Assembly (NCBI GenBank): GCA_000004985.1
Contig: GG738929.1
DNA length: 64,000 nucleotides
Reading direction: 5' to 3' (one strand)
From: Naegleria gruberi
Lineage: Eukaryota
Shown here: one piece after another, positions 10,628 to 63,047 of the stretch
How positions within the stretch are numbered: the first letter of the stretch is position 1
How the letters are laid out: each line of letters opens with the position of its first letter
Made by a program: the position numbers and the translations under genes
Notes under the pieces: generated by a model
Database searches by the model: none
Told to the model about the DNA's origin: nothing
The model's input: only the letters and a program-made list of their open reading frames with translations

Positions 10628-10632
10628 TTTTT

Positions 10633-29904: not shown

Positions 29905-29958
29905 ATTACAAGATCAGTAAATAAATATCTCAGTTTAGTTTCTGAATAAAAAGTTGAA

Positions 29959-32671: not shown

Positions 32672-33063
32672 CATTGTCAACAGAAAACAACTCTTCATAG
32701 ATCAAAATAGAATTTCCAAATTACCTGAAAAATTTTGGCAAGAAATCTTAAAGCTTTCACAGGACTTTTGAGATTGAGACATGAAAATAATTATAATAAT
32801 TTATGTGATGCATTGTCATTGACCTTTTACTATTCGAGACGGGACTGTACTCTCTCTCCTCCTCAATAAACAACAATACTTGGTAATGACTCAGCTTCCA
32901 TTTTCTCTCAATGGTGCGTTTTGAATACAGAGGAAAAGACTAAATTATGACAAATACTTTACATTCTTAAAGCTGTGAAGTAAAAATTGAATCAGATGAT
33001 GAAAGCTACTTATCCTCTCAAATAAACGAATGTCTTACTGTTTTATTTAAAATGGTATCTAAA

Positions 33064-33522: not shown

Positions 33523-33674
33523 TGATTACTTGAATTTCTGGAATATGAATCAGTTCACATTTTAACTATTAAGATCTAGTTTTCGTATCCCCCAATCTTT
33601 CGAATAGTACTGAAATAGACACACGAGTAAATCATATCCAACAAAGAATTTAATCCATTAGTATAATTCATTAT

Positions 33675-35330: not shown

Positions 35331-35418
35331 AAAAAGTTTTACTTTTGTATTTCTTTTATTCTTTGTTCAATAAAGAGATTTTCTCTTCTTTTGATATTGG
35401 TAACTCAACTGAATTGTC

Positions 35419-37542: not shown

Positions 37543-37726
37543 TTTTTAATCGACGAAAGGTCAACATGAATATCGAGAATCAAAAGGCCACAAAAAGAAA
37601 TGTCCTTCTAAAAGGTTCTCGGGAGAAATCATCAACACCTTTCGATAAATTGGGATTACAGCTTTTATGGAGCATCAAATCAGAAGCAATCAAGATCTTG
37701 TTTTCAATCTATGACACTAAGAAAAA

Positions 37727-37844
37727 GACTACAGCACCACAGGTTCCCAAGTTGTCTCCAACCTCAGTACTGATGTGGCTCGACGATGCTTAACTTCTCA
37801 AATCGGACGGGATGAGGTGCATGAATCGTGATATGGCCGTAGCC
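37727..37844 (-). rRNA. 5S ribosomal RNA gene (copy 2), identical 118-nt body to copy 1 (not compared base by base), with a T-run terminator
   Basis: It has the same sequence blocks as copy 1. The conserved 3-prime flank (about 40 nt) differs only by a 2-nt insertion, and the 5-prime flank is unrelated. Confidence 0.8.
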
Positions 37845-38162
37845 ATTCGTACTTCCAACTTGTGTAATATAAACCGATTTGATTCTCCTGGGGTGAGGTA
37901 AATAATTCAATAATTTTCATTCTTAGTATAAAAACAACCATCAATTTCAAAATACTTAATCGCAAGGAAATGTTAGTAATGTTATTTGACATTCTGAGCT
38001 CCAGTTTCTCCAACAAGTAACAAGGATATTTGTCATCAAATAAGTTACCTGTTTAAAACTCCCATCTATGTTATCGGTTGTAATTGTTTACAATAATTAA
38101 AAACTTACAAATTGCTCGCTTAATAATCAAATTAAAACCTCAAAAAAAAACACTCAAAAACA

Positions 38163-38411
38163 ATGATCAACGAACAAAGCAAAGAATTCATTCCAGCCTA
38201 TGTTCTTGAGGATGCCTGTTTACATTCAAAAGAGCAAGTTGCTGAATTCCAAAGACAGGGCAACCTATACAAATTTGAACCAATTCCTAGGAATGCTGAT
38301 CTTAGAAAATTGATACAAGAAGGAGCACAATTTGCAATTAAGAGAAAAGACTTGGAAAAGTACCTCTCCATCAACATTGAAGAGGATGATCTTATTAAAG
38401 TAAAACATTAA
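38163..38411 (+). CDS. Hypothetical 82-aa protein
   Basis: It is a clean ORF with a real ATG. I recognise no family. Confidence 0.3.
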   Translation: MINEQSKEFIPAYVLEDACLHSKEQVAEFQRQGNLYKFEPIPRNADLRKLIQEGAQFAIKRKDLEKYLSINIEEDDLIKVKH

Positions 38412-38458
38412 ATTTCGGTTAGGGATTTTTAGAGTTTCATCATATGGAAAATAAAGAA

Positions 38459-39001
38459 TTATTGGAAATTTTTTAAGCAATCGATAAATAATTGTTCAGA
38501 TTTCATTTTAGTGAGTGATTCTTCTCCAATAATAAGAATAAATTCTTCATTTAATTTGAAATAAAATCTGAACATTTTTAATATGCCATCTAGTTGAATA
38601 ACAGATTGAACCTGAAATAAATCTGGATTAATCCTATCTGTAAATGGTCTTAAAGAAACAATTCTAAATATTACACAATTATATAAATATCCATTATTGT
38701 ATCCACCATTTAAATCTTCATTAAATTACATCGTTCTTTTTACAGGTACAAAACCTCTTGTAAATCATTTTCATCATATGGAATTGATATGGTGCAATTG
38801 AGCTACTCATACCATGACATCATCACTACTTGTAAATTCATAATCAAACAAATTACGTTCCATTTTACAATTCCAACATGACACAAATGCAATCTCCTTA
38901 ACAATATGTTCCTTATCAATGAAGTTAGAACATTCGAGTTGGGTATTTGAATGAAGTATGTTGAGGCATTGGCTTTGGAAGATGAAACTTTCCAAGAGCA
39001 T
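38459..39001 (-). CDS. Small (about 113 aa) possible longin/roadblock-fold protein, 2 exons: join(39001..38813, 38611..38459)
   Basis: Exon 1 (63 aa, real ATG) ends at ATG|GTATGA. The acceptor TTTATTTCAG restores an open frame, giving VQSVIQLDGILKMFRFYFKLNEEFILIIGEESLTKM...Q*. The 201-nt intron is longer than the others seen here. The family call is weak. Confidence 0.3.
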
Positions 39002-39119
39002 GATGAAGCCTATCTAATCCAGAGGAGAATCACAGTTAAAACAAATAAATAACTTTACAAAAATGTTTTTTTATATTGTTAATATTGGATCAACAGCATT
39101 AACTGCACAATATTGTGAA

Positions 39120-39542
39120 TTAAAATTCGTATGATTTTGGCTTGTGAGCACCAGTGGAGCTGTTCAATTTAGCAATAACTTCTTCTTGAGAAAGTTGAGC
39201 ATGTTCAGAAGCTTGAATATCAATGTGAACAGAGTACTTTTGAGTAACGATGGTCTTATTAGCAGCAACCTTTGATCTCTTCATGGCATTACATTGACTA
39301 CCAGTCCAAGCAACTAAAACGAATTTAGTTCTTCTAGAATCATCATCAACAGCAACAGCACGATAAATACCAAACTTGACATCAGATGGACCGAATGAAC
39401 CCAAGAATTCATCCCAATCACCAGTACCAGTGGCATCCATGATCAAACCCGTCTTTTCTGGGACGAAAGTGAACCATTTAATGGATTCAGTCTTCAAGGA
39501 TTCCCAAGCAGCATCAATTTCTGGAGCAACGTTAGTGGACAT
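39120..39542 (-). CDS. Coactosin-like ADF-H (actin depolymerisation factor homology) domain protein
   Basis: The ADF-H pattern is KFVLVAWTGSQCNAMKRSKVAANKTIV. It is about 140 aa with a single domain. The real ATG is at 39542 (MSTNVAPEIDAAW); the track start at 39575 is a non-ATG codon. Confidence 0.7.
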   Translation of the reverse strand: MSTNVAPEIDAAWESLKTESIKWFTFVPEKTGLIMDATGTGDWDEFLGSFGPSDVKFGIYRAVAVDDDSRRTKFVLVAWTGSQCNAMKRSKVAANKTIVTQKYSVHIDIQASEHAQLSQEEVIAKLNSSTGAHKPKSYEF

Positions 39543-39759
39543 TTTGTTCTTGTGTTTTTTTTTGTGTGAAAACAACTTGATGACAGGGATTTATACTTGT
39601 CCATTGATGTGTGTGGCAGTTGTTGCTTACACGTGTTGTGGTGAAGAGAAAAAACCTGTCAACGATTGGCTTGCCCGTTAAAAAGATGACATACGTCAAG
39701 TTAAAATGTTTGATTGATGAGCAAAATTTTGATTGACAAGTTTGAAAGACAAGCAAACT

Positions 39760-39768
39760 TTTCCCGCC
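39760..39768. promoter_or_regulatory. E2F-like site TTTCCCGCC about 220 bp upstream of the coactosin gene
   Basis: This is a single consensus-like occurrence in the intergenic region 39576..40015. Confidence 0.2.
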
Positions 39769-40015
39769 CAATTAATTTTAACGTGTTAAATTGTGTGAAT
39801 CATACTCCGTACCTGACTGTTGGCTTTTTCTTATTGAATGTCCATTCATGTTCGAAGACGGCAAATCTGTAGATGAATAGAGTCCTGACATCTTTAAGAA
39901 TCCATATTTACAGTAAATTAATCTTTAATCTTTATATTGTCATCAACTACTAATAAATGTCAACTAGTAGTAGAAGCAGATTAGAGAGAAGATTATTGTT
40001 GAAAGATATAACATT

Positions 40016-40963
40016 CTATTGATGTGATGGATAAAACTTGACAAAACATCCAATGGCATCTTGTGAAATTTGTAATGGATTGAAACTTGTTTGTAAATAT
40101 CCTTCAATACTATTGTTAATACTATTGTTACTATTAATACTATTATCACTACTGTTAGTATGTGAAAAAATCATTTCACAATTTAAATTTTCCAAAATTG
40201 CAATTCTAGCATTCCAAAATCTACCATGTGAATGTTCAATAATTGGTGCCTTATTAGGATGGTCAATTGATGGTGTATCAATTCCAATAAGGAGAAGATT
40301 AGGTAATTCTCTTGATAAATATTCAGCTGCACTTGGATGAAAATGTGCAAAATCATTGGTCCATTCTTGTTCATCACTTGGTTGATTGGATCGAGTCTTG
40401 ATGATACATCTGAGAATTTTATCTTTTGGAATTTTACTCTTTTCAATTGCATTTCTAAGAATTTCTTCTGAAATTTCCAAATTATTCTTCAATTCTTCCA
40501 CTAAATTTAATACTAAACAAGCTCCATTATATTGAAGAGTGTGAAAATATTCCACAATTGGATTCTTTTCAAAATGTTTAGGTTGATCAGCATGTGTTCC
40601 AGCATGACTATTCGAAAGTATGACATTTCTAGTAACAATACAAACTCCATTACACGAAGATGAAACATCACACGATTGATTCATTAGACATGATGAACAC
40701 AATGATTTTACATTTTCCTTCTCTAATTTTAATTCCTTCTCTATTAAATCATCCACTGAAATAAATTGAGCATACGGAGTGTAATCATGATATGGAAATG
40801 AAGCATATTTAGCACACGGAGAAACAGTCAATTCAATTACATTCCATACTTTAATTGATGAAAGGCTTGATGATTTAAATTCTTCATCAATTTTAATTGA
40901 ATTTTCAAGTTTGGATTTTAATATTGTACATGGAATATCTAATAATTTGATCCATTCGATCAA
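40016..40963 (-). CDS. Cyclase-family / kynurenine formamidase-like protein
   Basis: The HxGTHxDxPxH metal-binding motif is present as SHAGTHADQPKH. The size is appropriate for the fold. The track start is TTG, so the true N-terminus is uncertain. Confidence 0.65.
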   Translation of the reverse strand: MIEWIKLLDIPCTILKSKLENSIKIDEEFKSSSLSSIKVWNVIELTVSPCAKYASFPYHDYTPYAQFISVDDLIEKELKLEKENVKSLCSSCLMNQSCDVSSSCNGVCIVTRNVILSNSHAGTHADQPKHFEKNPIVEYFHTLQYNGACLVLNLVEELKNNLEISEEILRNAIEKSKIPKDKILRCIIKTRSNQPSDEQEWTNDFAHFHPSAAEYLSRELPNLLLIGIDTPSIDHPNKAPIIEHSHGRFWNARIAILENLNCEMIFSHTNSSDNSINSNNSINNSIEGYLQTSFNPLQISQDAIGCFVKFYPSHQ

Positions 40964-41221
40964 TATAATGGTGTGTTGTATTGTTGTTGGTATTATTTCA
41001 AAGGCTTTGAAAATTTACCTTCAATTTTGCTGGTTGAGTTCATTTATTTTTTTTAATTAATTTTTAAAAGTGTATTCTTTGAATATTATTGGTTATTTAT
41101 TGATATTCAAATATTTGAATATTATATAATACCAATCAATATATGAAAATTATAAAAACTAACAAATTTGATAATCAATAAACTTTTTTCAATCATTTTT
41201 AAATTTTAGCCTTTAAAAAAA

Positions 41222-42124
41222 ATGTTCAAAAATTCAAATACATTTATTCAGCATCATTTACGTTCGATTGCTGTTCATCATAAACAACAAAAATACTATC
41301 GATTCGGACTCGGATTAATTCAAAGTAATAATAATTTATCATTAAATAATAATCAATGTAGATATTTTCTGAAGAATATTTTCGGAGGTGATAATAAATT
41401 AAAAGAAGAAGTTGAAAAGGAAAGAGAAAGATTATCAAAACATTTGAAAAATGAAAGAGATAATATCCAATCGGAAATTCACAGATATTCTCCTCTTAAA
41501 GAAATTAAATCAGTCCTCAAACATAAAGGAAAACTTTTTGTTTCCATGTCAGGACAATTAATTCCACTAGAAAAGAGTACAGTCTTTCCATCACCTGAAG
41601 TTATTCTCGGAGATGGTAGAAATAAGGCTGTTATTAAGAATATTAATGGAGAACAAGTTGATCTTGTAAAGAAAATCAAGCAATGTAGAGCAACTTTATT
41701 ATTTGTGAATTTTACTGAATATGGTTCAAATATGACAAAGGAATGGAAGGAAGCATATGAAGAATTTCAAACTCAATATGAAACTTCTAGCCCATCATCA
41801 TCTGTAAACAAAACTCAATGTATAGATTTAAGTATTAGCGAAAATTATGTCGTTTCGTGGCTTGAATCTTATGTCACTAAAAATTTAAAATCTGTAGTTC
41901 CAGAAAAGATGCATGCCAATACTTTATTAACATTCCTCAAGAATAATAATGAAACTTTCAAATTTAAGGATGCTGTAGAAATTACCAATAGTAAGACATG
42001 TTACGTTTTTGTTATTGATCAACAATGTAGAATTAGATGGAGAGGTTGTGGATCACCTGAAGGTAAAGAAAAGGATTTTATGATATCAGCCATTCAACAA
42101 TTACTCACTCAAAGAATACAATAA
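41222..42124 (+). CDS. Possible mitochondrial ATP10-family assembly factor (hypothetical)
   Basis: It has about 300 aa with a basic N-terminus. The C-terminal pattern CYVFVIDQQCRIRWRGCGSPEGKEKD resembles the conserved ATP10 (V/I)DxxGRIRWxGSG motif. This call rests on memory only. Confidence 0.35.
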   Translation: MFKNSNTFIQHHLRSIAVHHKQQKYYRFGLGLIQSNNNLSLNNNQCRYFLKNIFGGDNKLKEEVEKERERLSKHLKNERDNIQSEIHRYSPLKEIKSVLKHKGKLFVSMSGQLIPLEKSTVFPSPEVILGDGRNKAVIKNINGEQVDLVKKIKQCRATLLFVNFTEYGSNMTKEWKEAYEEFQTQYETSSPSSSVNKTQCIDLSISENYVVSWLESYVTKNLKSVVPEKMHANTLLTFLKNNNETFKFKDAVEITNSKTCYVFVIDQQCRIRWRGCGSPEGKEKDFMISAIQQLLTQRIQ

Positions 42125-42142
42125 AAAATAGGTCAATAAAAT

Positions 42143-43318
42143 TTATTCAATGCTAACAACCTTTGGACCATAACCAACAGTTGTGTGGATCAAATATCTC
42201 AATCCATCAGCATCAATCTTAACAGAAGTGGACTTCTTGAATGATTCAACCATTTCAGTATATTGCTTCATTTCAGTAACGAATGGTTCCTTAGAGAAGA
42301 ATTGTTCTTGATTTGATGGTGGGAAGAAAGCATGTAAAATAGCCAAAAACTTGTTAGTAACTTCCTTGTTAGGGAAGAAGAGAACAGCATTTGGACCAGC
42401 ATCAAAAGTATAAGCAACCTTCAAATTTTCAACACCATTTCCATCATCGAAAGCATTGAAATCCTTAACCAATTGAACAATTTGGTTAGAAGTTTCATTC
42501 ATATAATAAATAGCTGGTTCAGTATCAGCACAACAAGCGTGCATATTATCAGAATCATCCATAGTTAATGTAGCAAAAAGATTAAAATCTTTAGTCTTCA
42601 AAGCCTTATCCATTTCAATCATTCTTTGTGGAACAATTTCACTAGCTCTAACCTTCAATAATTTAGAAGTAATTACAGATTGTTGCATTCCTGATGTACT
42701 TGGAGTGTGTTTTTGTCTATCAGAAACAACACAAACAACAATATTAGTTTGCTTTGAGAAATCATCATGTTCATCCAAAACTTGAATAGCCTTACTTGTT
42801 TCATGATCGTGACCCTTTTCCCAAGCAACATATCCTCCGTACAATGATCTACAAGCACTACCACTTCCCAATCTTGCAATAATACTCAAATCAGATTTAA
42901 CTTCAAATAATTGACCCAAAGCAAAAACTAAACAACAATAACCAGAAGCACTTGATGCTAAACCAGCTGCTGTTGGGAAGTTATTGGTAGAATCAATATG
43001 AACATAAATTTCTTGATCCTTGTTTGGACGTTCAGTGTACCATTTAGCTGTAGCTGCTTTACGAATTTCTTGGAAAACTCTTTGAATACGTTTACTTCCT
43101 TGAACATCTTCCTTCTTTCCATTCAAAATTAATTCATCACAAGGAAATTCAGTACTAGCTTGAACAGTGGTAGTAGTCTTTAAATCATCTTGGTTAAGAG
43201 TAGCAGAGAGAGATGAATTTAATGGAATGTGTTCTGCTTCATTTTCCTTTCCCCAATATTTGATGACGGCAATATTAACAGGACTTGTACAAGTGAATTT
43301 AGGTGAAGTGAATGACAT
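42143..43318 (-). CDS. mvd: Diphosphomevalonate decarboxylase (mevalonate pyrophosphate decarboxylase)
   Basis: GHMP-kinase family motifs are present: NIAVIKYWGK, PTAAGLASSASGYCCLV, GSGSACRSL and AYTFDAGPNAVLF. It is a full-length 391-aa ORF with a real ATG. Confidence 0.9.
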   Translation of the reverse strand: MSFTSPKFTCTSPVNIAVIKYWGKENEAEHIPLNSSLSATLNQDDLKTTTTVQASTEFPCDELILNGKKEDVQGSKRIQRVFQEIRKAATAKWYTERPNKDQEIYVHIDSTNNFPTAAGLASSASGYCCLVFALGQLFEVKSDLSIIARLGSGSACRSLYGGYVAWEKGHDHETSKAIQVLDEHDDFSKQTNIVVCVVSDRQKHTPSTSGMQQSVITSKLLKVRASEIVPQRMIEMDKALKTKDFNLFATLTMDDSDNMHACCADTEPAIYYMNETSNQIVQLVKDFNAFDDGNGVENLKVAYTFDAGPNAVLFFPNKEVTNKFLAILHAFFPPSNQEQFFSKEPFVTEMKQYTEMVESFKKSTSVKIDADGLRYLIHTTVGYGPKVVSIE

Positions 43319-43620
43319 TTTTTTTTTAAAGGCTTGGTTGTTAAATGATTAAATTTTAACTTGAGCGAACGTTGCAAGGATGACAAAACGGTGAACGAAT
43401 TAACAAGCTATTAGGAAGCTAGGCAATTTGATCTTTTTGATGAACAGTCAGTGTGGTGGTAACCTCAGCTTGAAATTAATATCATTAGAAGTAATAATAA
43501 TAATTTGTAATTGATTCTGCTACAGCATTGAAAGCCTTGTGTGAGGAGAGGCATAGACACTTTGAAGAGAGTTGTGTGATGAAGAATTAAAAGAATCGGA
43601 AATAAATAGGAAGAAAAAAA

Positions 43621-44524
43621 ATGTCCAACAATAAACAAGAAGATTTTGATGACCTTGACGATATTCTCGAAAGTAAGTGGTTAGATTCCGATCGGATTAA
43701 AATTAAACAATCGGATCAAAATAGATGCTTTAAATGAATTTGATGAAGCACCAAAAACACCATCATCTGAAAAGAAAACATCAGCATCATCACCTGTAGC
43801 ATCATCTTCTGCTGATGCTTCTTCATCATCAAACTTGGAACCAAATGATATTGATTTGGATGATATTTTACAGAAAACATTTACTCCACAAGAAAAGGAA
43901 GTTGTAAATCATTTAACAGAACAAGTGACTAAATTTTTCAATGAATTGGAACAAACTGAAGGAGGTGAAAAGTCTAGTAATTTCCAAAATGCATTACATA
44001 ATACATTAAATTTATTAAATCAAAATGTAGAATCAATGAATGATACAACAAATACTTCTAATACTGGTAGTAGTAGTGGTGGTGATAATTCAGGAGAAGA
44101 AGAACCAGTTGATGAAGGAGCCTTTTCAAATCTTTTACAAAGTATGATGGAAGTACTAATGTCACCTGATATTCTTAGACAACCAATGGAAGAATTAAGA
44201 GAAAAATATCCAATATGGTTGGATCAAAATAGAGGAAAAGTTGCTGATGAAGAATATCAACGTATTCAAAAACAATATGATTTATGTTGTAAAATTTGTA
44301 ATGTTTATGAAACGAGCAAGTATCCAGATGCTATTGATGAATTGATAGAATTAATGAAAGCAATGCAAGAACAAGGTCAACCACCAGAAGAAATTGTTAG
44401 TCAATTATCTAAAGCTGAAGGAGGTTCTGAAGAAGAATCTCAAGTTCAAAAACTTTTACAAGGACTCAAATTTACTGATGCTGCAGGAGGTGCTGGTGGT
44501 AAAGGAGGTTGTCCAACTCAATAA
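43621..44524 (+). CDS. pex19: Peroxin-19 (PEX19), 2 exons: join(43621..43672, 43725..44524), with a C-terminal CaaX box CPTQ
   Basis: The N-terminal acidic motif is DFDDLDDILE...LNEFDEA. The central/C-terminal PEX19 core is LLQSMMEVLMSPDILRQPMEELREKYPIWLDQNRGKVADEEYQRIQKQYDLCCKICNVYE. The gene ends in CPTQ. The intron is a 52-nt GTAAGT...ATAG. Confidence 0.8.
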
Positions 44525-44673
44525 ATTCATTTCTTACAAATTTTATTAGAATGAAACTCATTAATACCTTAATGTAATGAATGCAAGTTTATAAGTTCAA
44601 TGAACTCTGACTTTCTAATAGTGTTGCCTTGTTATTCTCATTTTCCAGCCAAGTTTTATATTCCTTAATATCA

Positions 44674-44723
44674 NNNNNNNNNNNNNNNNNNNNNNNNNNN
44701 NNNNNNNNNNNNNNNNNNNNNNN
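44674..44723. other. Assembly gap (50 N)
   Basis: Run of n characters. Confidence 1.
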
Positions 44724-44972
44724 TGAGGATCCCGTGCTGATTTTTGCTGTAATTTCCATCAATTCGGAATGACTATCTTTCTGCTTAATAAAATCGAGTG
44801 GTTTCAATGAAATAATTACAGGGACAATTTATTTCTTCTATCTTTACTCTATTAGAGTTATCATATCTAGTAGAATTTATTTCTTTCATGTCTGATGAAG
44901 CCTTCGTTTTATTTCTCCTTTTGGTCGTTGTAATTTGCAAAAAAAAATTCAACTCGAAAAAAATATTTAACG

Positions 44973-46552
44973 ATGAAGATCTCAAAACTTGTTAAGAATA
45001 CCAAGAATTTAATCTCAACAAATAATAGATGCTTCTCTACTTGTGTTAATAACAAGGGAAGCGTTATTGGATCTCCTGCTGAAATTCCTCTTTCTAGCTT
45101 CTACCCAGGAGCTCCTCATCTTCCAAAGGATATTGATGCTAAAGAAGAATCACTTGTTTTCCAAACACAAACATCAACTCTTCCAAACGGTTTGAACGTT
45201 GTTTCAACTGTAAGTAATAATAATAATAACAAGAAGAGAAGACTTATTCCGCGGTAATAACGATTTTTATTGGAAATTATGATGTCAATGACGACGATGT
45301 ATTTAATGATGAAAATTTAAAAAATTAATTTTAATAGGATTCTACTTCAAGAGGAGTTAGTGTTGTCAGTCTTTTTGTCAATGCTGGATCCCGTTTTGAA
45401 ACATATCGTACAAGCGGTGTTTCTCACTTTGTTGAAAAGTTCTTCTTCTCAAGCACAAACAATAGAAGTTTGTTGAGATTGACAAGCGAATTACAAAAGA
45501 CTGGTGCTAGTGTTAGCGCTCAAACTGGTCGTGAACATATTGTATATCAAGCTGAAGCTTTGCGTGAATCAGTTCCTCTTGTTGTGGAACTTATGGCAAA
45601 CTCTGTTTTGCAAGGTAGATTGCATCCATGGGATTTGGAACCAAAGGCTGAAGCTGTTAAACGTGATATTTCTGAATTCCAAAACAATGCTCAATTCGTT
45701 TTGAATGAAGCTCTCCATCATACTGCTTTCAATGGTGAAACTCTTGGTCGTTCACTCTTGTGTCCACCACACAATGTCTCAAAGATTGATACTGATATTG
45801 TTTTGTCTTACATGAACAATTTATATGTTGCTCCACGTATGACTTTGGTTGGTACTAACATTTCACACGAAGAACTCAAAGAATTAGCTAATGTTTTGTT
45901 CTCATCAATTCCATCACAAGTTTCTGAAAGACCAGAAGGTGAACATTTCACTTTTGAAAAGTCCGAATATGTTGGAGGTGACTTGCAAATTCACGAACAT
46001 TCTCATGCTGGTACTCAAGCTATTTTGGCTTATAAGGGACCATCTCTCACTTGTTCTAAACATGTAGCATATCTTGTTTTGTCTGAACTTTTGGGACAAA
46101 CTACCAACAAGTATACTGGATCTGTTAATCACAGTGCTTCCAGATTGGCCAAGTCTGTTAAGAATGTTGAATTTGGATCTTCATTTGTTTCATCATACTC
46201 TGATAATGGTTTGTTCGGAGTCTTCCTTGCTGGTAAGAATGCTAAGGAAGTTTCCTCAGCTGTTCAATCCACAGTTGCTGAATTGAGCTCTGTTCAATCT
46301 ACTTTGACTGCTAAAGCTCTTGAAGGTGCTAAGAATCACGCTTTGCTCAAGCTCTACAACTCTGTTTCATCAAGTGTTGGTTTGCACGAACACACTGCTA
46401 CTTATGGTGGTGTCCAACAAGTAGCTCAAGCTATTTCTTCTGTCAGTGCTGCTGATGTTATTGAAGTTGCTAAGACTTTGTTGCAATCTAAGCCAACTTT
46501 GGTTTCTTATGGTGATCTTAACGGAATGATCAAGACTAGAAACATTCAATAA
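44973..46552 (+). CDS. Mitochondrial M16-family non-catalytic subunit (cytochrome bc1 core protein 2 / MPP-alpha-like), 2 exons: join(44973..45209, 45338..46552)
   Basis: There is a mitochondrial presequence. The degenerate zinc motif is HFVEK rather than HxxEH. The C-terminal segment SYSDNGLFGVFLAG matches core-2 SYSDSGLFG. The 128-nt intron is GTAAGT...TTAATAG. A 50-N gap lies just upstream at 44674..44723. Confidence 0.75.
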
Positions 46553-46652
46553 TTCTTTTTTGTTATAGAAAAACCGGTGAAAAAAAGTCAAAAGGGAGGG
46601 TCCTTTTATAATACCCTTATATAAATTAAAAAAAATCAATTTCTAAAATAGT

Positions 46653-49600
46653 TTATTTAATTTCTAATATTCCAAGTTTGAGTTCAATATCTTGTCTTGA
46701 TAAAATACGTGCTTGATGAATAACAGTATATCTATTATTGGATGAAATTGGAATTCCTTGTGAGAGCATGATATCAGTAACTTCAATAACCTTATCAGTT
46801 GCATGTAAAATTGTCAATTCCAAATACTTGTTCATTAAATCTTCAATTGAAAAGATATCTTCATATTGTAATGAATCTTGATTTTCAAATAATGATTCAT
46901 CACTCATTAATTGTTGAAATAATAAACTAGTTTCAAAATAATCTGAAAAATCTCTACAATTATGAGTTAACAAGTATAATGTTAATAAATCTCTTCTTGT
47001 TTCTCTATTTCTCAAATTATAAAAACACCACAATGCAGTAATAAATTGTCTTCTATGACATGTCATTAAAATTCCATTCAAAGTTCCAACATTATCAAGT
47101 GGAATTAGAGATTTTTCAATTAATTGTTTAATTCTATTTTGAGATTTTCCTTTCAAAATAATTAAAGTAATATAATAATAAATTTCATCATTCTTTTCAA
47201 TATTATTTTCCTTATTTGTAATTATATTTAAAATATTATTAACATGATAAGTATCATCATTTGGTAAAGTTATCATTTCTAAACCTTTCAAATAACAAGT
47301 TGTAATTAAAGTTAGAAATTTTTGAACATTTTCATCAACTTTTGAATTTTTCCAATTTAAAACAGAATTAAAAATAGATTTTTGTAATTCTGGATTTTTT
47401 CTTAAATGAATATTTTGTAATTCATTAAATAAATTTAAAACAATATCCAAAGATGGAATTAAATTATAAACTTGATAAATTTCTTTAAATATAGAAACTG
47501 CTTTTGTAAAATAATTTTTATGTTGTAAATAAGATTTAATAATTAATCTAAAAGTTTCCAAATTTGGTTTTACCATATTTTGTTTTAATTGTAAATAAAA
47601 AAATTCAATTTTTTCTAAATTTTTTTCCTTTTCATAAATTTCAATTAAAATATTATAAGCATTAACATTTTTAGGATATAATCTAATTATATTATTACAA
47701 ATTTCAATTGTTTTTTCTATATTTATATTTAAATAATATTGTGCCATTAAATCATAAGTTTCTATATTTGGAAAACTTTCTAAAAATGAAGTCATTTCTT
47801 CAATTAGTAATTTAAATGATTTTGAATTATTTTGATTTAATAAATATAAAAGTAATAAATTACAAATTTCAGTATTTAAAATTATTGAATCATTATAATT
47901 TTCAATAAATTTTTTAATTTCATCTTGTTTTTCAAAAATTAATTGTCCTTTTAAGTAAATTCTTTTTGTATTTGTATTATTTTCTAAATTTGGTAATTTA
48001 ATTAAAACATCTTGATAAAATGAAAATATTTTGTTTACATGTTTTAAATATTTTGATTCATTTAAGTGACTAGTTTCCATTTCTATAATTGTTTCAAATA
48101 TTAAATTAAATAAATTTGTTAAAAATTCAATTTTTTCATTTGTAAAATTTTTTAAATTATTAATTAAAAAATTAAAAATATTTGCTGCTATAAATGGTTT
48201 ATCTAATTTGGTACATAAAATTTCAATTACATTTTTAATAATTTCCTTTTCATTATTTAATTTTTCCAATTCAATAAAATTTAAATTTAAAATTAAATTT
48301 TCAATTAAATTATTTTCATTATTTTCATTTAAATATTTTAATTTAAATTCATTTGCAAATTCCAAATCTTTTTGTGTTGAAGAATTTTGAATTAATTTTT
48401 CATAAATTAAATTTAAAGTTTCATTTTCAATTTTTAAATTTAATTTTTTTAAATTTCCAAAAATTTCTAATGCAACATCTAAATTATTTATATTTTTAAT
48501 TAATTGATTTAAAATTTTACTTTTTTGTTCATTAGTTAAATTTGTTTGATTTTTAAAATTTCTATAAATAAATGATAAATTATTTCCAAATATAGTTGAT
48601 ATATTATTAATTAATCTATTTAAATATTCATTATCATATTCATTAATATTATTTAAATAATTATTAATACAATAATTAAAATAATTTAAAATTAATTGAT
48701 TACTATTTCCATCTTTTAATATATTTGCTTTATATGGTAATATTTCTATTCTTAATTTTGTACAAATTTCAAATAAATTTAATGATGACATGTCATTTGC
48801 CATAAATTTTAAAGCTAATTTAAATGAAATTGTAAAATTTGATTTAATTTTAGAAAATAATTTTCTAATCATTTCAATATTTCCATTTTTATCATAAAAA
48901 GTTAATAATAAAGAAAATTCTTCATCATTTAAATTATCTAAATTTGGTAAAATAAATTCATCAATTAAATTTTCATTTCCATTAAATTCAATTAATTTAA
49001 TTAAAAAAGATTTAAAATTTTTATAATTTTTAAAATTTAAAATTAATTCATTTAAATTTTTAGAATTTAAAATAAATAATTCTTTTGTTTTTTCATTAAT
49101 TAAATTATTATTTGTATTTATAAATTTAAATAATTCATCAACATTTAAATTTTTTTTAATCATATTTTCAATTACTAAATTAATTAAATCAATTTCAAAA
49201 TTATTTTTCTTTTTTAAAAATTTTGAATTTAATAATTCAATTGCTTCATTAATTCCATCATATTTAATTAAAGTTTCAATTGATTTTTTATAAATTTCAT
49301 TTTTTTTATCAATATTTCCAATATTATCAATTATTCTATTTATGGAATTTAATATACTTTTATTATAATCAATTAAATTTATATTATTTTCATTTTTATT
49401 CATTATTAATATTGTATTAAATAATTTTAAATAAATTTCACTTGTTTTATTTGGAATATTATTAAAATATAATAATCCATTTTGTAATGATTCCTTTTTT
49501 AGTATATTTTCTAATTCAATTTCATATGAAAATGTATTTTCATCTTTTTCAATATATTTTAATATTATATTTTGAATATTTTCATAAATTTCATTATAAT

Positions 49601-50153
49601 TTATATTTTCTAATTTATTAATAGGAGTATTAATAGTATTTATTGTATTATTTGAATTAATTGTTATATTTGAATTTATATTTAAATTATTATTGATATT
49701 ATTAGTATTACTGTTATTGAAAGTTGTTGAATAATTTCTAATAGAAAATAATCTTGTTGTTGTTGTTGTTGATAATACTTCGGAAGATGATGTTGATTTA
49801 AAACTAGTTAAAGATTTCTTGTTCAATTGATTATTTAAACAATCATTATGATAATATTGTTGTTGTTGATAATGATGAATTAAACGAACAATAAGATTAC
49901 TAGTAGTATTGTTGTTGTGATACACACGATGATGATTTAATAATTTAGCCTTTTGCATCATTTTTTTCAATTTTTCAAAAAAACATGAAGCATAATTAAA
50001 ATCAAGCCTTGACAAGTAAATGTGCATAATAATACTACTATCAAAAACAGAGTATATTAGTCTTAACATATCATCAACAAATACTTGGAAGAAAAAGTCA
50101 ATTTGATTGAAGCCTTTATCAAAGGCTAAAAATTCATTAAAAAAAATGAACAT
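46653..50153 (-). CDS. Very AT-rich helical-repeat protein, probably PPR/TPR-like (organellar RNA-binding type), about 1100 aa
   Basis: It is a long ORF dominated by N/I/K/L, with recurring 35-aa-like helical units (for example YNILIEIYEKEKNLEKIEFFYLQLKQNMVKPNLETFRLIIKSYL). The start is uncertain: the ATG at 50153 would overlap the NSUN gene start head-to-head, and an internal MM at 49961 is an alternative. Confidence 0.45.
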   Translation of the reverse strand: MFIFFNEFLAFDKGFNQIDFFFQVFVDDMLRLIYSVFDSSIIMHIYLSRLDFNYASCFFEKLKKMMQKAKLLNHHRVYHNNNTTSNLIVRLIHHYQQQQYYHNDCLNNQLNKKSLTSFKSTSSSEVLSTTTTTRLFSIRNYSTTFNNSNTNNINNNLNINSNITINSNNTINTINTPINKLENINYNEIYENIQNIILKYIEKDENTFSYEIELENILKKESLQNGLLYFNNIPNKTSEIYLKLFNTILIMNKNENNINLIDYNKSILNSINRIIDNIGNIDKKNEIYKKSIETLIKYDGINEAIELLNSKFLKKKNNFEIDLINLVIENMIKKNLNVDELFKFINTNNNLINEKTKELFILNSKNLNELILNFKNYKNFKSFLIKLIEFNGNENLIDEFILPNLDNLNDEEFSLLLTFYDKNGNIEMIRKLFSKIKSNFTISFKLALKFMANDMSSLNLFEICTKLRIEILPYKANILKDGNSNQLILNYFNYCINNYLNNINEYDNEYLNRLINNISTIFGNNLSFIYRNFKNQTNLTNEQKSKILNQLIKNINNLDVALEIFGNLKKLNLKIENETLNLIYEKLIQNSSTQKDLEFANEFKLKYLNENNENNLIENLILNLNFIELEKLNNEKEIIKNVIEILCTKLDKPFIAANIFNFLINNLKNFTNEKIEFLTNLFNLIFETIIEMETSHLNESKYLKHVNKIFSFYQDVLIKLPNLENNTNTKRIYLKGQLIFEKQDEIKKFIENYNDSIILNTEICNLLLLYLLNQNNSKSFKLLIEEMTSFLESFPNIETYDLMAQYYLNINIEKTIEICNNIIRLYPKNVNAYNILIEIYEKEKNLEKIEFFYLQLKQNMVKPNLETFRLIIKSYLQHKNYFTKAVSIFKEIYQVYNLIPSLDIVLNLFNELQNIHLRKNPELQKSIFNSVLNWKNSKVDENVQKFLTLITTCYLKGLEMITLPNDDTYHVNNILNIITNKENNIEKNDEIYYYITLIILKGKSQNRIKQLIEKSLIPLDNVGTLNGILMTCHRRQFITALWCFYNLRNRETRRDLLTLYLLTHNCRDFSDYFETSLLFQQLMSDESLFENQDSLQYEDIFSIEDLMNKYLELTILHATDKVIEVTDIMLSQGIPISSNNRYTVIHQARILSRQDIELKLGILEIK

Positions 50154-52022
50154 TTCAACCTTGAAGGCTTTTTCTGTTCGGAGATTAAATCATCACCATC
50201 ATCAATTCTATAATATTATCAATCCATATTCATATCATCAACAACAACAACAACAATTATTTTCAACATGTTTATTTACATTCAATAAGGATAATTTAAA
50301 TGAAAAGATTTTTAAAAATTCTAAAAAGCCTTCTTTCCAACAATCAAAACAAAGACATCATTCTAATAATACAAAACATTCTAATAATAATTCTAATAAT
50401 AATAACAAATCATCATCATATCATATAATAATAAAAAGAATGAAAAATATCCAAAAGAAGAAATTCTTGCAAAATTAGAACAAATTAAACAATTTGAAGA
50501 AAATCTTCAACAAGAATCAACATTAAATAATTTTCCATTTGTAGAAAGACATACTATATCAATATTATATCATTATCATCAAATATTAATTCAACAATCA
50601 AATTATCCATTAGATTTATTTATTTCAAATTATTTAAAAAAAAATAATATTGGAAAAAATAACAAACATTTAATTATTTCTTCATGTTATGAAATTGAAA
50701 AATTATATTTATTATTAGATTATTTAATTAAAAATTATGATTTTAAATTAATTGAATCTAAATTATTAATTTCATTAGATCAATATATAAATAGAATTAA
50801 TCAAATTAAAATTAAACAATTAGGTCCAAATTCAAATTTATTACCAAAATCAGTAACTTTTGTTGAAGAAAATAAGAAAACTGTTTTACATTGGAGATTA
50901 ATTTATTTTATTTATATTGATAGATTTTATACTAAAAATTTTATTAATTCTATAAATGATTTATATTCTCAATTTGGTAATATTCCTAAAAATATATTAA
51001 CTAGTTGTCCTTCTCAATTATTTGATTTATTTAAAGAAGATTATAATTTACAATATGCTATTGAATTATCTCAAATTAATTTAACTGAAGCTCCTGTTTT
51101 TGCTCGTTTAAATGATTTGAAATTTAATTCTCTTTCTAATAATAGTAATATTATTTCTAATAATAATAATAGTAGTAATAATACCAGTAGTAATAATAGT
51201 GAAAATAATGATAATTCTAATTCTTCTAATATTTCTAATAACAATTCAAATGAAAAGATAATATTAAAAAAGTTTATTAATAGATTATCAAATAATTATT
51301 CTGAAATTGTTGGACAAATATTACCAAGTGAAAATTCTAAATTTGGATTTAAATTTGAAAAAAAAGCAGAATTTAGACAATGGAAAGAATATAAAGAAGG
51401 ATTATTTGATATTCAAGATGAATCATCTCAATTAATAGTTCAAGAATTAATTAGAAATATTGTAATGAAAGAAATTAAAACATTAAAACCATTAATTTTA
51501 GATTATTGTTGTGGAACTGGTGGTAAAACATTTGCATTTGCAGGTTGTTTAAATGGAAAGGGACAAATTTATATGCATGATGTACGTTCTGAAAAATTAT
51601 TTCCCGAATTAAAAAGAAGAGCACAAAGATTAGGAATTGAAAATATTCAACCCATTGAACATGATCATTCACATTGGGATAAATTGAAAGATAAAATGAA
51701 TTTAGTATTGTGTGATGTTCCATGTACAGGAACAGGTACTTTGAGAAGAAATGTTGAAACCAAGTACAAGATTAATTATCAATGGTTACAAGAATTAACT
51801 GAAAAACAACGTGATATTATTCAAAAAGCAATTCCATTCGTTAAACAAGATGGTTATTTCCTCTATTCTACATGTTCAATTTTGAAAAAGGAAAATGAAA
51901 AACAATTGGAATGGATTTTGAAAAAGTACAAGAATTTCCAACTCGTTCACACTGTAAAGATTTTACCAACCATTGATGGTTCAGATGGAATGTATGGTGT
52001 TTTATTAAAGAGAATAAATTAA
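50146..52022 (+). CDS. NOL1/NOP2/Sun-family RNA (cytosine-5)-methyltransferase (short NSUN4-like form), with a frame discontinuity near 50400..50480
   Basis: Motif I is LDYCCGTGGKT, motif IV is CDVPCTGTGTLRRN, and motif VI is LYSTCSI. A long open frame runs from about 50406 to 52022. The track lists only its C-terminal 301 codons, from the first ATG at 51117. A separate ORF (ATG 50146, MNISTLKAFSVRRLNHHHH, presequence-like) ends at 50478 in another frame. Confidence 0.55.
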
Positions 52023-52123: not shown

Positions 52124-54570
52124 TTAATTAGTTCTAACTAATTGTACAGTTGTATCAGTTGTCATCCAAATATTCAATTCTTCAAAATGATTTAAACATC
52201 TTGTAATATCTTCTTGTCTAAAACCAACTAATTCAGATTGTAAACCAGCCATATCAATAATACCATTTGTAGATTGTTGTAATCTATTTCTAATAATATC
52301 ATAAACACCATACATTGGATCAGATCTTCTTTGACTTCTATCACTATCATCTAAAAGTGAAGATCTTGATTCTAAAATTAATCTTTCTGCTTCATTAACA
52401 TCACTAATTTCAATTTTAGATGAAAATCTTAATCTTGCTTTTGATTCAGCAAGTCTATAAATTGATAAAATAGTTCTAGGTGTTGTATACATTTGAATCT
52501 TATCACTCACTTTAGAATTACGTTCATCATTTTGACGCATTGTAATATAAATTTCCTTAATCTTATTAGAGGCTGTATTGGCTCCAAATCCTTCTTGTGC
52601 TGATAAATAAGGTTCAAATGTTTTAGCTCTAGTTACAACTGCTCTAATATATTCAGGTGAAAATAATTTATTCTTCTTCATCTTCTTCATTTGAATTACC
52701 AGTAGTAGTAGTATTATTTGAATTGTTAGTATTTGAATTATTAGATGGTATTTGTGAAAATTGATGTACAAAAGTAATATGTCTTGCTAAATTCATATCC
52801 AATTCATTATTTTGTTTATCCAAAAGTAAAAACATCAAATCAAAACGTGACATTAGAGCAGGTGGTAAATTAATATTTTCAGAAACAGATCTTCTAGTAT
52901 TCCAACGACCATATGCAGGATTAGCAGCAGCTAATACACATGTACGTGCATTTAAAGTAGTTGTAATACCTGCTTTAGCAATTGAAACAGATTGTTGTTC
53001 CATAACTTCATGTAGTGCAGTTCTATCATATTCTTCCATTTTATCAAATTCATCAATACAACAAATACCATTATCTGCTAATACTAATGCACCTCCTTCT
53101 AGAATTAATTCATTTGTAAGTGGATCTTTAATAACAGCTGCAGTTAAACCAACTCCACTTGATCCTTTACCAGTTGTATAAATACCACGTGGTGATATAT
53201 GTGAAATGAAACGTAATAATTGAGATTTTGCAACACCTGGATCACCCATTAAAATTACATTTAAATCTCCTCTAATTTTTAATCCTCTAGTTTCACGTGT
53301 TTGTGCTCCAATTAACATTAATAAAAGTGCTTTTTTAACATTGGCATGTCCATATATTTCAGGTGCTATTGATTTTGATAATTTATCATACCATTGATCA
53401 TGTCCCATCTTTCTAATATCTGAATCAATTTTAATCATTAGTGCTTGTTCTTGTTCACTCAATTCACTTAAATCTGTATATCTTCTCTTATGTTTTAAAA
53501 TTGAATGTGCTTCTAAATAGGTTGTTGCAACAGGTCCTCCTCCTGAATGATGATGATTATTTCTACCACCACCACTATTACCACTACTCACTTGATAAGG
53601 TAAAAATATACCAAAACAAGTAATTGAATCACCAGGTGTACATGTTCTAGTTAATTCACCTCTCATAACAACTCTCATAGTTCTAGGTATATGTCCAGTT
53701 GGTACTTCATCTGACATTTCCTGAATAACTAATTGTTGAAATTTAACAAAACATGATTCTCTTGTTTGTTGTAATAAATTTCCTTTACATTCTTTTTGTA
53801 CACATGTTTCAATTGGAATGAATGATGTTTGATTAATTGTTTGATAAATCATTCCAGAACATGTATCACATTTATAAGTTGCTACTTTCATTTCTGCTTT
53901 AACATCTGTTTGTTTTGTTACAATACCTCTAACTGTTACTAATTTACCAATATGTTTTCCTTTAATTAATCTTAATGGTATTGTACGTTGTTGATGTGTT
54001 TTAGGTTGAAATGTTAATTCATATTTTCTATTCAATTCACTTGGTATTCCATTATTAGAACTATTGGAATTATTATTATTATTGGAATGTTCATGATGAT
54101 CATGATGATTATCATTCATTCATTAAATCATCAAATTCATCATTTTCTAATTGAATTAATTGATCAATAACATTTTCAAATAATTTTTTATATCTCATTC
54201 CATTTTCTTGTATTTTAAACATTAAATCTTTAAAACCTCCAATTTGTAAATCATCAAATTGAATGGGAAATTTAATCTTTTCATCAGAATATTCTAATTG
54301 ATGTAATTTTAATTGATCTATTAACTTTTTATATGGAAAAATCATTTCACTCTCCTGTAATAATTCATTAAATTGTACTGATGTAAATTCTAATAGGAAT
54401 TTTTTAATGGTTTCCTTTTCTCGGATATAATCTGGCATGTGAATTGATGATTTTGTAGTGTTATTATTGTCAAGAGTATTATTATTACTTCCTCCTCTAT
54501 TGTTATTGTTGGAGGCATTACCACCACTACCACCTCTCTGTTGTTGTTGTTGTTGTGAGAGTGATAACAT
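52124..54570 (-). CDS. mcm7: MCM7 replicative helicase subunit, recovered as three ORFs with two frame discontinuities (near 54112..54119 and near 52668..52771)
   Basis: The N-terminus MPDYIREKETIKKFLLEF is present. The zinc-finger/OB segment is KCDTCSGMIYQ. Walker A GDPGVAKSQLL, Walker B CCIDEFDKM and the arginine finger SRFDLMF are present. The C-terminal winged-helix-like tail matches the MCM7 order and length. Confidence 0.8.
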
Positions 54571-54721: not shown

Positions 54722-56897
54722 TTATTGATTTGGTACTAGTTCATATTTAATATTTTGTAATAATTTTCTATCATTATAATATTGTATTATATAAATTCCA
54801 AATAAAGCAATACTAACAATGACTAGAAATGAAAATAAAATGATTGATAAAACTAAAAGTGGATCTAATTTTTTACCACTTACAATAGTTTCAACAATTA
54901 AATTATAATTAGATTCAGTATCAACAGTATTTAATACAATTATAGTAAGTGAATGTGTTGAATTTCTATTTAAATTTGAAATTTGTAAAGTTTTTTCATT
55001 AACATCTTCCAAATCATAATAATTAAAAATATTTTTAAAATTATCATTAAAATTATTTGTAATATTTAAAAATGTTTCATTATTTGGTTGTAAATATAAA
55101 TGTAATTTTCCTAATTTGGAAGTTTTAGTTAAAATTAAACGAATATCAAATAAACCAATTGAATTATCAAATGGAATTAATAAATTATATAAATGATAAT
55201 TATTACCAAATATTAAATTATTATTATAAATAGCTTGTTTACCAAATGTAATATCATTTCTAATTATAGAACAATCATTTCCATAATAACCTAATTCACA
55301 TTCACATTTAGAATTAATTAAACATTTACCATGATTTGAACATTGATTTGGACATTTCATTGTATTTGTTTGATAATCAATTTTAAAATCATTACATTCA
55401 ATTGTTGATGTTTCACTTTCCATATTTGTATAATTACAAAATGATTTTTTATATAAAAATCTTGAAATCATTTCAAATGAAGCATATGGTACATCATGTG
55501 GTGATAAATGTCCACTTGAATATAAAATTACTTGTCTTAGATTTTCATATTTTTTAAATATTCCTAAAATTATATTATTATTATTATTAGTATTACCATT
55601 TATATTATTATTATTATTATTAGAAATAGAAGAAGAATAAAAAGGATAATGTGGTTCATAATTAAAATCTTGTTTACCATACCAATTCATTAATCTTAAA
55701 TATTCATTTGTACCATAAACAGAACATCTAATATCAAATTGACCATTTATAATTAAAATTCTATATTTAGATAATAATGGAATTAAATAATTAACATAAT
55801 CAACTTGAAAATCATTTTTAAAATCATTCCATAATTTAGAACTACATTGAGTATATAAATAATCATCCTTATTTAAATTTCCTAATAAAACATTTTTAAC
55901 ACTTTCCATATTTAAATAACTTTCTAATTTTGATAAAATACTATATGTACCAATTAATCTATAATCATAAATATTAATACCACCAGATGATTGTAATAAA
56001 TTATTTAATGCACTTGAACAATAAGTTGAATCTGCTTTTGAATACATTTTTTGTTCTATAAAATCATGACATGTTTTTTGTAATGAATTAATTTGAATTA
56101 AATTTTCATAATCAATTAATCCTACTATATATGATAATAATCCATAACTATTTTCTTGTATATCAGGTGATATCCATGCATTACCCATTATTATACCTTC
56201 TAATTTTATTATAAAATATTATTTTTATATAATTAAAATTAAATATTTTAAAAAAAAAATAAAATACATACTGATTTTGTAAATTTTTTTTATCATCATT
56301 ATATTCACTAATAAATTTAGCAAATGAAATGACATATTTACCACCATATGATTCACCATATAAATAAAGTGGTCTATTTTTAAATTCACTAAATTTAGAA
56401 TAAAAATCTAATAAAGCATTTAATAATTGTTCACCAACTTGAATAGCATTCATTCCATTATTATTATTTACTTCTATATATGGACTATATCCAGCACCAG
56501 TTGGATTATCTATAAATAGAACATTAAAATTTCTAGAATAGGAATTTAAATTATCAGTCAAAGTTTGATTTAAATTAAATTTAATTGGTCCAATTTCTAA
56601 AAAAGTAGAAATTAAACTTGAACAACCAGGTCCACCATTTAAAAATATTAATAATGGATTTGTATTTGTAATTGAATTTCCTTTTTCATCATGTTGATTT
56701 ATTAATAGAAAATATAATTGACCATATTTATTATTTAAAAATCCACTATTACCTTTTAAATTCAAATAATTTGTACCTTTATAGGAAGGTAAAGATGAAA
56801 ATGAAAATTCTTGACTTGAAATACATTTAATATTTGTTATTATTAAATTATTTAATAATATTATTAGTAATAATGTTATTAATTTTATATTTTTCAT
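54722..56897 (-). CDS. Serine carboxypeptidase (peptidase S10) with C-terminal EGF-like module and TM anchor, 2 exons: join(56897..56272, 56189..54722)
   Basis: There is a signal peptide. The S10 motifs are GGPGCSS and GESYGG (catalytic Ser). The His region is YSSGHLSPHDVP. The EGF-like module is CPNQCSNHGKCLINSKCECELGYYGNDC. The C-terminal TM is LLVLSIILFSFLVIVSIALFGIYII. The 82-nt intron (GTATGT...ATTAG) is phase-checked and joins ...KNLQNQ|GIIMGNAWISPD. Confidence 0.85.
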
Positions 56898-63023: not shown

Positions 63024-63047
63024 TTGCCAAAAATCAAAAGCAAGAAA

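Follow-up and report, generated by a model that had tools for sequence, protein, structure and literature searches.

Does an abrupt change in base composition along an assembled contig mark a real boundary in the genome, or a fault in its assembly? The question is raised by a stretch of 64,000 nucleotides from the Naegleria gruberi assembly GCA_000004985.1 (contig GG738929.1; referred to below, at its full length, as the window), in which the genes to the left of about 46.6 kb use mixed codons and those to the right are extremely AT-rich. A first-pass annotation, made from the letters alone, had considered a chimeric or mis-joined scaffold, DNA from two different organisms, and a genuine isochore-like boundary. 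The last of these is supported here by a conserved junction and a lineage-specific shift in composition: the boundary is real, its junction is orthologous in other species, and the break probably marks the true left-hand limit of an AT-rich compositional domain of the N. gruberi nuclear genome, in which a G/C-to-A/T regime has acted in place. The genome as a whole has been summarised as 35% G+C (PMC9928731).

Position, size and sharpness of the break

A single-change-point likelihood scan of the window places the break at base 46,601 (maximum likelihood; support interval of 2 log-likelihood (lnL) units, 46,541-46,851), within the 46,550-46,700 named by the first-pass annotation, and the one-break model is better than a model without a break by 311 lnL units. 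As that annotation had also recognised, the break lies between two convergent genes: the change point falls within a spacer of 100 bp that separates an M16 peptidase gene (+), ending at 46,552, from a PPR-like gene (-), ending at 46,653. G+C is 0.319 over bases 1-46,550 and 0.208 from 46,551 to the window end, and the lowest values (0.12-0.17) are reached within the AT-rich side, at 47.4-49.8 kb.

The G+C of third codon positions (GC3) averages 0.245 in 28 left-hand open reading frames (ORFs) taken in their true frame and 0.08 in nine right-hand ORFs (Mann-Whitney p = 1.3e-5); with the reading frames checked it is 0.252 for the far left, 0.256 for the M16 gene and 0.063 for the right. All nine right-hand ORFs have a GC3 of 0.16 or less, most of them of 0.09 or less, regardless of function or conservation. 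In bins of 50 codons the M16 gene keeps a GC3 of 0.20-0.32 as far as its stop codon, and the PPR-like gene shows 0.04, 0.22, 0.12, 0.06, 0.08 and so on. Between the far left and the right, G+C at four-fold sites is 0.19 against 0.04, C at NNY codons 0.23 against 0.03, and G at Gln, Lys and Glu codons 0.27 against 0.07, while noncoding DNA has a G+C of 0.29 to the left of the break and of 0.21 to its right. In the predicted proteins the share of Phe, Tyr, Met, Ile, Asn and Lys (FYMINK residues, with AT-rich codons) is 0.34 on the left and 0.43 on the right, and runs of at least four Asn number 12 among the 3.9 k residues on the right, with none among the 10.2 k residues on the left. The early description of mixed codons and few poly-Asn runs to the left and extreme AT to the right is therefore accurate (GC3 of about 0.25 and about 0.06; Asn runs on the right only). 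The likeness to Dictyostelium discoideum that accompanied it holds for composition only, the organism being Naegleria gruberi and not a dictyostelid.

Synonymous sites, noncoding DNA and amino-acid usage shift together at a significant change point, which is the behaviour of a compositional domain. The AT-rich domain measures at least 17.4 kb, a gap of 4.8 kb included, and is still running at the window end; the change in amino-acid composition, the Asn runs and the drop in noncoding G+C all begin at 46.6 kb. The window is laid out as follows.

1..46552: G+C-normal domain; G+C 0.319, GC3 about 0.25, noncoding G+C 0.29; its proteins are exact N. gruberi NEG-M entries
40019..44524: shoulder with the cyclase-like, ATP10, MVD and Pex19 genes; GC3 0.11-0.22, amino-acid composition unchanged
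44674..44723: assembly gap of 50 N between Pex19 and M16, 1.9 kb to the left of the break and within G+C-normal DNA
44973..46552 (+): M16 peptidase / cytochrome b-c1 subunit 2-like gene with one intron at about 45,252-45,337; last gene of the normal domain
46553..46652: spacer of 100 bp between convergent 3' ends; contains the change point at 46,601
46653..50153 (-): PPR-like gene, 1166 aa; first gene of the AT-rich domain
50146..52022 (+): NSUN / RsmB-F-type RNA methyltransferase gene, GC3 0.08
52124..54570 (-): MCM7 gene, GC3 0.07; protein 80% identical to the ortholog of a Naegleria from an ENA metagenome
54722..56897 (-): S10 serine carboxypeptidase gene with EGF domain; intron GTATGT..TTAG at about 56,197-56,270; GC3 0.03-0.04
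57345..58145 (-): gene for a 266-aa predicted protein, EFC36561, GC3 0.07
58256..63023: assembly gap of 4,768 N inside the AT-rich domain
63024..64000 (+): Ser/Asn/Thr-rich ORF, GC3 0.06

Both N gaps had at first been assigned to the AT-rich side or to repeats; the larger (58,256-63,023) does lie on that side, and the 50-N gap (44,674-44,723) belongs to the G+C-normal side. The PPR-like gene, the first to the right, has a G+C of 0.16, a GC3 of 0.06, a G+C at first and second positions of 0.21 and an Asn content of 16%; its orthologs are a 1560-aa gene in N. lovaniensis and a gene of at least 1035 aa on an ENA metagenome contig. The split in the S10 gene is an ordinary intron.

The spacer itself carries a palindromic motif, AAAAGG-GAGGGT-CCTTTT (46,585-46,610), which N. 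lovaniensis conserves and the ENA species conserves in part. It folds no better than shuffled sequence (z = 0.37), there is no tRNA or other Rfam RNA near the break that might act as a boundary element, and a 25-mer from the spacer has no exact match among JGI metagenome contigs.

Conservation of the junction in other species

In the independent assembly of N. lovaniensis, contig PYSW02000025.1 carries ATP10(+), MVD(-), Pex19(+) and M16(+), followed beyond the junction by the 1560-aa gene(-), NSUN(+) and MCM7(-), an order and orientation identical to those of the window at 41.2-54.6 kb. The Pex19-M16 adjacency, which holds the 50-N gap in the window, is thus kept as well. A third Naegleria species is represented by a 4.8-kb ENA metagenome contig (k141_1213667), on which M16(+) is followed by the convergent PPR-like gene. 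The nucleotide alignment with N. lovaniensis continues past the M16 stop codon to 46,642, that with the ENA contig also takes in the last codons of the PPR-like gene, and in both relatives the junction aligns base for base. Since two Naegleria species share this gene order without such a drop in composition, the break is a genuine feature of the genome and neither an assembly error nor foreign DNA. There is no N at 46,550-46,700 and the spacer is unique sequence, so that the join is free of the gap, repeat or low-complexity bridge that a chimera might have. The suspicion of a chimeric or mis-joined scaffold does not survive the conserved order in N. lovaniensis and on the ENA contig, the aligned junction and the lack of a gap there.

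The suggestion that two organisms are involved is likewise contradicted. Proteins from both sides are exact N. gruberi NEG-M entries from a single scaffold of 189,881 bp (for example MVD, EFC36555, on the left, and MCM7, EFC36558, and the 266-aa EFC36561 on the right). A comparison of top-hit taxa, which the first-pass annotation had proposed as a check, gives the same groups on the two sides, where the best non-self matches are to Naegleria and then Willaertia. The M16 protein matches N. lovaniensis best (79%), then the same ENA metagenome (79%) and Willaertia (58%). The MCM7 exon is 100% identical to N. gruberi, followed by the ENA Naegleria (81%), Willaertia magna (70%) and Acrasis kona (61%). 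The MCM7 of the window is the sole N. gruberi MCM7 among the database matches, and the AT-rich block therefore belongs to the N. gruberi genome.

Genes from both sides lie on one contig of 425,626 bp in Willaertia, where the convergent NSUN/MCM7 pair is conserved; as the locus keeps this pair only, it provides no test of the junction. About 2 kb past the pair, one gene further on, W. magna has a 3-kb stretch without called genes and with a G+C of 0.08-0.14 (locus 16,000-19,000).

The only independent N. gruberi-like DNA that was found is a 1.3-kb ENA metagenome contig (ERZ929261), which covers MVD only, far from the junction, and is 99.9% identical to that gene over 1,213 bp. Its nucleotides 1-118 do not align to the upstream region of MVD in the window (43,346-43,463), a mismatch that could reflect strain variation in a divergent promoter or a chimeric metagenome contig. 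The 1166-aa PPR-like ORF and the NCBI fragment of MCM7 gave no exact match in a contig index that does not include the N. gruberi assembly.

A lineage-specific and position-dependent shift

In N. gruberi the G+C to the left and right of the junction is 0.326 and 0.212; the corresponding pairs are 0.368 and 0.335 for N. lovaniensis, and 0.408 and 0.369 for the ENA species. About 0.035 of the step of 0.114 is present in both relatives, and that part therefore reflects gene content. The remainder becomes apparent when orthologs are compared gene by gene. Left-hand orthologs have GC3 values (N. lovaniensis/N. gruberi) of 0.31/0.24, 0.38/0.31, 0.31/0.21 and 0.31/0.25, and those on the right of 0.26/0.07 (PPR-like), 0.25/0.08 (NSUN) and 0.22/0.07 (MCM7). 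For S10, homologs in N. lovaniensis and N. fowleri have 0.27-0.33 against 0.03-0.05 in N. gruberi. For the right-hand genes, orthologs from three other species show a GC3 of 0.22-0.43, compared to 0.03-0.09 in N. gruberi. The result is a local GC3 minimum in ordinary genes that is absent in related species.

The direction of change was read from polarised synonymous sites, defined as codons for the same amino acid in all three Naegleria with G or C at the third position in both relatives. N. gruberi kept G/C at 61 of 74 such sites in M16 (82%), but at 3 of 23 in the PPR-like gene (13%), 14 of 30 in NSUN (47%) and 25 of 64 in MCM7 (39%), a highly significant difference between M16 and the right-hand genes (Fisher p = 1.8e-10). 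First and second positions have been affected as well: their G+C is 0.21 in the PPR-like gene, down from 0.34, and 0.28 in NSUN, down from 0.37, while in the left-hand orthologs first- and second-position G+C and amino-acid usage are unchanged. The AT shift is confined to the N. gruberi lineage, varies with position and extends to all classes of site.

The shoulder to the left of the break

The switch had been described as complete within about 100 bp. This is a fair account of bulk G+C, for which the support interval spans about 300 bp, but not of synonymous sites, since Pex19, to the left of the break, already has a GC3 of only 0.11. The four genes of the shoulder at 40.0-44.5 kb have a mean GC3 of 0.17 as against 0.26 further left (p = 0.003, for a grouping made post hoc). 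Synonymous sites are fully shifted in Pex19 (43,685-44,521, +), where G+C at four-fold sites is 0.06, C at NNY codons 0.10 and G at Gln, Lys and Glu codons 0.06, compared to 0.20, 0.24 and 0.27 in N. lovaniensis. Its amino-acid composition is normal, as is the G+C of the flanking intergenic DNA (0.29-0.38). ATP10 and the cyclase-like gene are partly shifted, and in these two, as in Pex19, synonymous G+C is reduced in N. gruberi only. With 4-5 kb on the left shifted at synonymous sites, the break is not as clean as it looks from bulk G+C.

MVD and M16 follow a different pattern, with a four-fold-site G+C of just 0.04-0.08 and with C-ending two-fold codons kept, as they are in the orthologs, which looks like selection on the codons of well-expressed genes. 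The retention of C-ending two-fold codons in M16 thus contributes part of the visual sharpness at 46.6 kb. The shoulder fits a graded process acting in place better than it fits a single foreign segment.

A possible origin of the AT-rich domain

The gene order across the edge is probably ancestral for the genus Naegleria. Since the split from N. lovaniensis and the third species, the DNA to the right has probably evolved under a much stronger regime of G/C-to-A/T substitution than the DNA to the left, which would have driven synonymous sites to about 4-6% G+C and noncoding DNA to about 21%. Weakly constrained proteins would have been enriched in residues with AT-rich codons and have gained Asn runs, and essential genes such as MCM7 have retained their protein sequence. 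The most likely cause appears to be a domain-specific, AT-biased substitution regime, for example through the loss of GC-biased gene conversion. Our best guess is that gene conversion of this kind, or recombination, would be weak or absent in the domain, with composition decaying to an AT-rich mutational equilibrium, and the partly shifted left shoulder would fit such an effect if it is graded. About as possible is a mutational bias of the domain itself, tied to replication timing, chromatin state or cytosine methylation. By relative rates the MCM7 and NSUN proteins have accelerated little and S10 moderately (about 5 points), and the rates therefore do not discriminate between the mechanisms.

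The observed/expected ratio of CpG is 0.38 on the left and 0.24 on the right, and TpG/CpA are over-represented (1.31-1.35). Such values are compatible with cytosine methylation in N. gruberi, which cannot account for a loss of G/C in every context.

Several points weigh against a domain shaped in place. The three 1-nt frame shifts in right-hand genes, described below, leave open a copy assembled at low quality or a degenerating allele; the grouping of the shoulder genes is post hoc, and MVD and M16 are confounded by a codon selection common to their orthologs. Moreover, the G+C of right-hand intergenic DNA (0.18-0.23) exceeds the GC3 (0.03-0.09), which a purely neutral regional bias does not predict; the excess reflects, in our view, constraint on spacers that are very short and include one conserved across species. 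Finally, the domain is followed within the window only, its right-hand limit lying beyond the end, and the N. gruberi sequence rests on one Sanger assembly.

Comparison with known systems

The closest parallels are the GC-poor troughs around the centromeres of the yeasts Candida lusitaniae, Pichia stipitis as well as Yarrowia lipolytica (Lynch et al. 2010, PMC2997560). They have been attributed to suppressed recombination and a loss of GC-biased gene conversion, and differ between related species (PMC2997560). The N. gruberi domain resembles them in the regional drop of synonymous-site G+C in ordinary conserved genes. However, the yeast troughs extend gradually over 100-300 kb, one per chromosome, at mapped or inferred centromeres, whereas the N. 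gruberi edge occupies about 300 bp and 17 kb or more of the domain are visible.

Classical isochores extend over hundreds of kb (300 kb or more) and are conserved between related species. The strong change point, and a shift that affects third positions, noncoding DNA and amino-acid usage together, recall such isochores, but the N. gruberi domain is lineage-specific and only 17.4 kb of it are within the window. In the mouse, the Fxy gene spans the pseudoautosomal boundary and has gained G+C in its high-recombination part. This case shares with ours a sudden jump in third-position and noncoding G+C that has a fixed place in collinear orthologous sequence and arose in one lineage only, though in the opposite direction, a gain in the mouse and a loss in N. 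gruberi.

Sharply bounded AT-rich blocks beside gene-rich DNA of normal G+C are also known from the isochores that repeat-induced point mutation has generated in Leptosphaeria maculans and other fungi, which are gene-poor and contain transposon relics and CpA-to-TpA signatures. The N. gruberi block, in contrast, is as gene-dense as its neighbour and has neither dispersed nor satellite repeats, its only repeats being low-complexity tandem repeats in coding sequence. A signature of repeat-induced point mutation is absent from it (observed/expected CpA/TpG 1.35, TpA 0.79).

Alternative explanations

One possibility is that the right-hand DNA is a recombination-cold domain of a particular kind, either a stretch flanking a centromere, whose extremely AT-rich core would be the unclonable gap of 4.8 kb, or a region comparable to a mating-type locus. 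AT-rich centromere cores occur in Plasmodium and some yeasts, and no centromere map was found in the literature for any Naegleria. We consider this identification doubtful. If it is true, the domain would give the first access at the sequence level to the centromeres of Heterolobosea, or to their sex and recombination, and would show directly which mutational equilibrium (about 4% G+C) is reached with GC-biased gene conversion switched off.

An introgression or hybrid origin is likewise unlikely. In this case the right-hand block would have been replaced, by homologous recombination, with DNA from a diverged and very AT-rich Naegleria, and the break would be the recombination breakpoint. Chromosomal regions of outlying composition are known: the left arm of chromosome C of Lachancea kluyveri is G+C-rich, introgressed and thought to be foreign, and Mamiellales algae possess low-GC outlier regions. 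The N. gruberi domain shares with them sharp bounds and an atypical composition and codon usage in normal genes, but they measure 0.5-1 Mb, and the gene distances in N. gruberi give no sign of a foreign origin. The very sharp edge in bulk G+C (support interval about 300 bp) speaks for a breakpoint, and so does a distance of dinucleotide signatures that averages 121 between left and right and 52 among left segments; however, the distance between the two right-hand segments is also high (82), and the measure is therefore noisy at such a composition. A partly shifted left shoulder is not what a single breakpoint would leave, and no Naegleria with a GC3 of about 5% is known, the sequenced genomes having 35-37% G+C (PMC9928731).

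The protein distances bear on this origin more directly. Pairwise identities among the three Naegleria are 0.81/0.79/0.81 for MCM7, 0.69/0.61/0.67 for NSUN and 0.77/0.79/0.77 for M16, and N. gruberi is 2-3 points farther from Willaertia in MCM7 and M16 alike. MCM7 and NSUN are thus equidistant to N. lovaniensis and the ENA species, as M16 is, and show no extra depth; no discordant or deeper position of block genes was found in a comparison whose power is limited by three ingroup taxa. S10 is the exception: measured against Willaertia, it has diverged about 5 points further than its N. lovaniensis and N. fowleri homologs have. Its close homologs in these two species are found only on different contigs, each about 25 kb from a contig end. 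As the identity between N. gruberi and N. lovaniensis (0.53) equals that between N. lovaniensis and Willaertia, S10 may not be a strict ortholog. That it is as AT-shifted as its neighbours despite having homologs on other contigs points to an effect of chromosomal position in N. gruberi. At about 54,600, where S10 stands beside MCM7, there is an apparent rearrangement breakpoint inside the AT-rich block or, alternatively, S10 is a paralog.

Another explanation, to which we give very little weight, is that the right-hand block is a decaying allele of a degenerating haplotype whose functional counterpart of normal G+C is missing from the assembly. It draws on three 1-nt frame shifts without introns: two apparent ones in MCM7, at about 54,110 in 'aatgaatgaatgataat' and about 52,690 in 'gaagaagaataaatta', and one in NSUN at 50,406-50,478, without GT..AG. 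In addition, the NCBI model of MCM7 is a fragment of 407 aa only. The frame shifts may be sequencing errors in AT-rich low-complexity DNA or real lesions; all three lie in low-complexity inserts without intron boundaries, which makes sequencing errors plausible. Against decay, MCM7 is 80% identical to the ENA Naegleria protein and as conserved as that of N. lovaniensis is relative to the ENA species (0.81), a level which implies that purifying selection was active throughout the AT shift, and the protein collection contains no second N. gruberi MCM7 and no other member of its cluster at 90% identity or more. The frame shifts, the 4.8-kb gap and the fragmentary NCBI models do lend some support to the earlier view that assembly quality is lower on the AT-rich side, and have no bearing on the join.

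The contrast might also arise gene by gene from codon usage, with no regional component, if a highly expressed, biased M16 gene happened to stand beside weakly expressed genes of low complexity. The C-ending two-fold codons and T-rich four-fold sites of M16 and MVD, which are ortholog-like, indeed inflate the contrast at 46.6 kb, a step of 0.03-0.04 in G+C occurs at the same junction in other species, and a few left-hand ORFs also have a GC3 of 0.09-0.18. But the low GC3 is common to all nine right-hand ORFs, whose orthologs in three other species have 0.22-0.43, and noncoding G+C and that of first and second positions drop too. The comparison normalised by orthologs largely refutes this very improbable explanation.

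An assembly chimera, or contaminant DNA of a second organism joined to N. gruberi sequence, is scarcely credible, for against the window's two gaps of N, the three frame shifts in genes on the right and a single N. gruberi assembly stand a junction without a gap, the same adjacency and orientation in two independent assemblies of other species with an alignable spacer, the sole N. gruberi MCM7 among the matches, and right-hand genes of Naegleria type. An origin from a giant virus or mobile element was rejected, as the right-hand genes are collinear cellular orthologs.

Other features of the window

The M16 gene, searched against a collection of 5.8 billion proteins, has no N. gruberi counterpart there, its best match being the N. 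lovaniensis protein (79%); the annotation of N. gruberi appears to lack this gene.

Farther to the left, about 26 kb (approximately 12,830-39,120) separate the orthologs of a gene pair that stands side by side in N. lovaniensis (locus 2124-4381 and 4680-5099), and this segment is therefore lineage-specific. It contains repeat-family genes, two 5S rRNA genes of identical score (26,725-26,843 and 37,726-37,844, both -) and a tRNA match of 93 nt (29,959-30,051, -). A predicted protein of 250 aa (36,790-37,542, -) has a partial copy with at least 90% identity, EFC35917.1 (186 aa), on a separate N. gruberi scaffold of 14,937 bp, which could be an unmerged haplotype scaffold or the result of a recent duplication. 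At 30,601-31,594 a tandem repeat of 168 bp (5.9 copies, 89% identity) lies inside an NHL-repeat gene, the ORFs of which have a GC3 of 0.09-0.10 and frame discontinuities.

Implications for Naegleria genomes

The N. gruberi genome is not compositionally uniform, despite the single figure of 35% G+C by which it is usually described, and a suspected mis-assembly can be removed from its reference. Full-text searches of a literature with incomplete coverage turned up no account of AT-rich domains, isochores or mapped centromeres for Naegleria, which is absence of evidence only. Annotation in such AT-rich domains needs care, in view of the frame shifts, the large gap, the fragmentary gene models and an apparently unannotated M16 gene. 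Essential genes, among them MCM7 and an RNA methyltransferase, have synonymous sites with about 5% G+C in this domain, compared to 20-40% in their orthologs from sister species. If such domains occur once per chromosome or have low recombination, they would mark centromeres or recombination-cold regions, neither of which is mapped in this lineage, and if they recur in this way, mutation bias and gene-conversion bias would become separately estimable.

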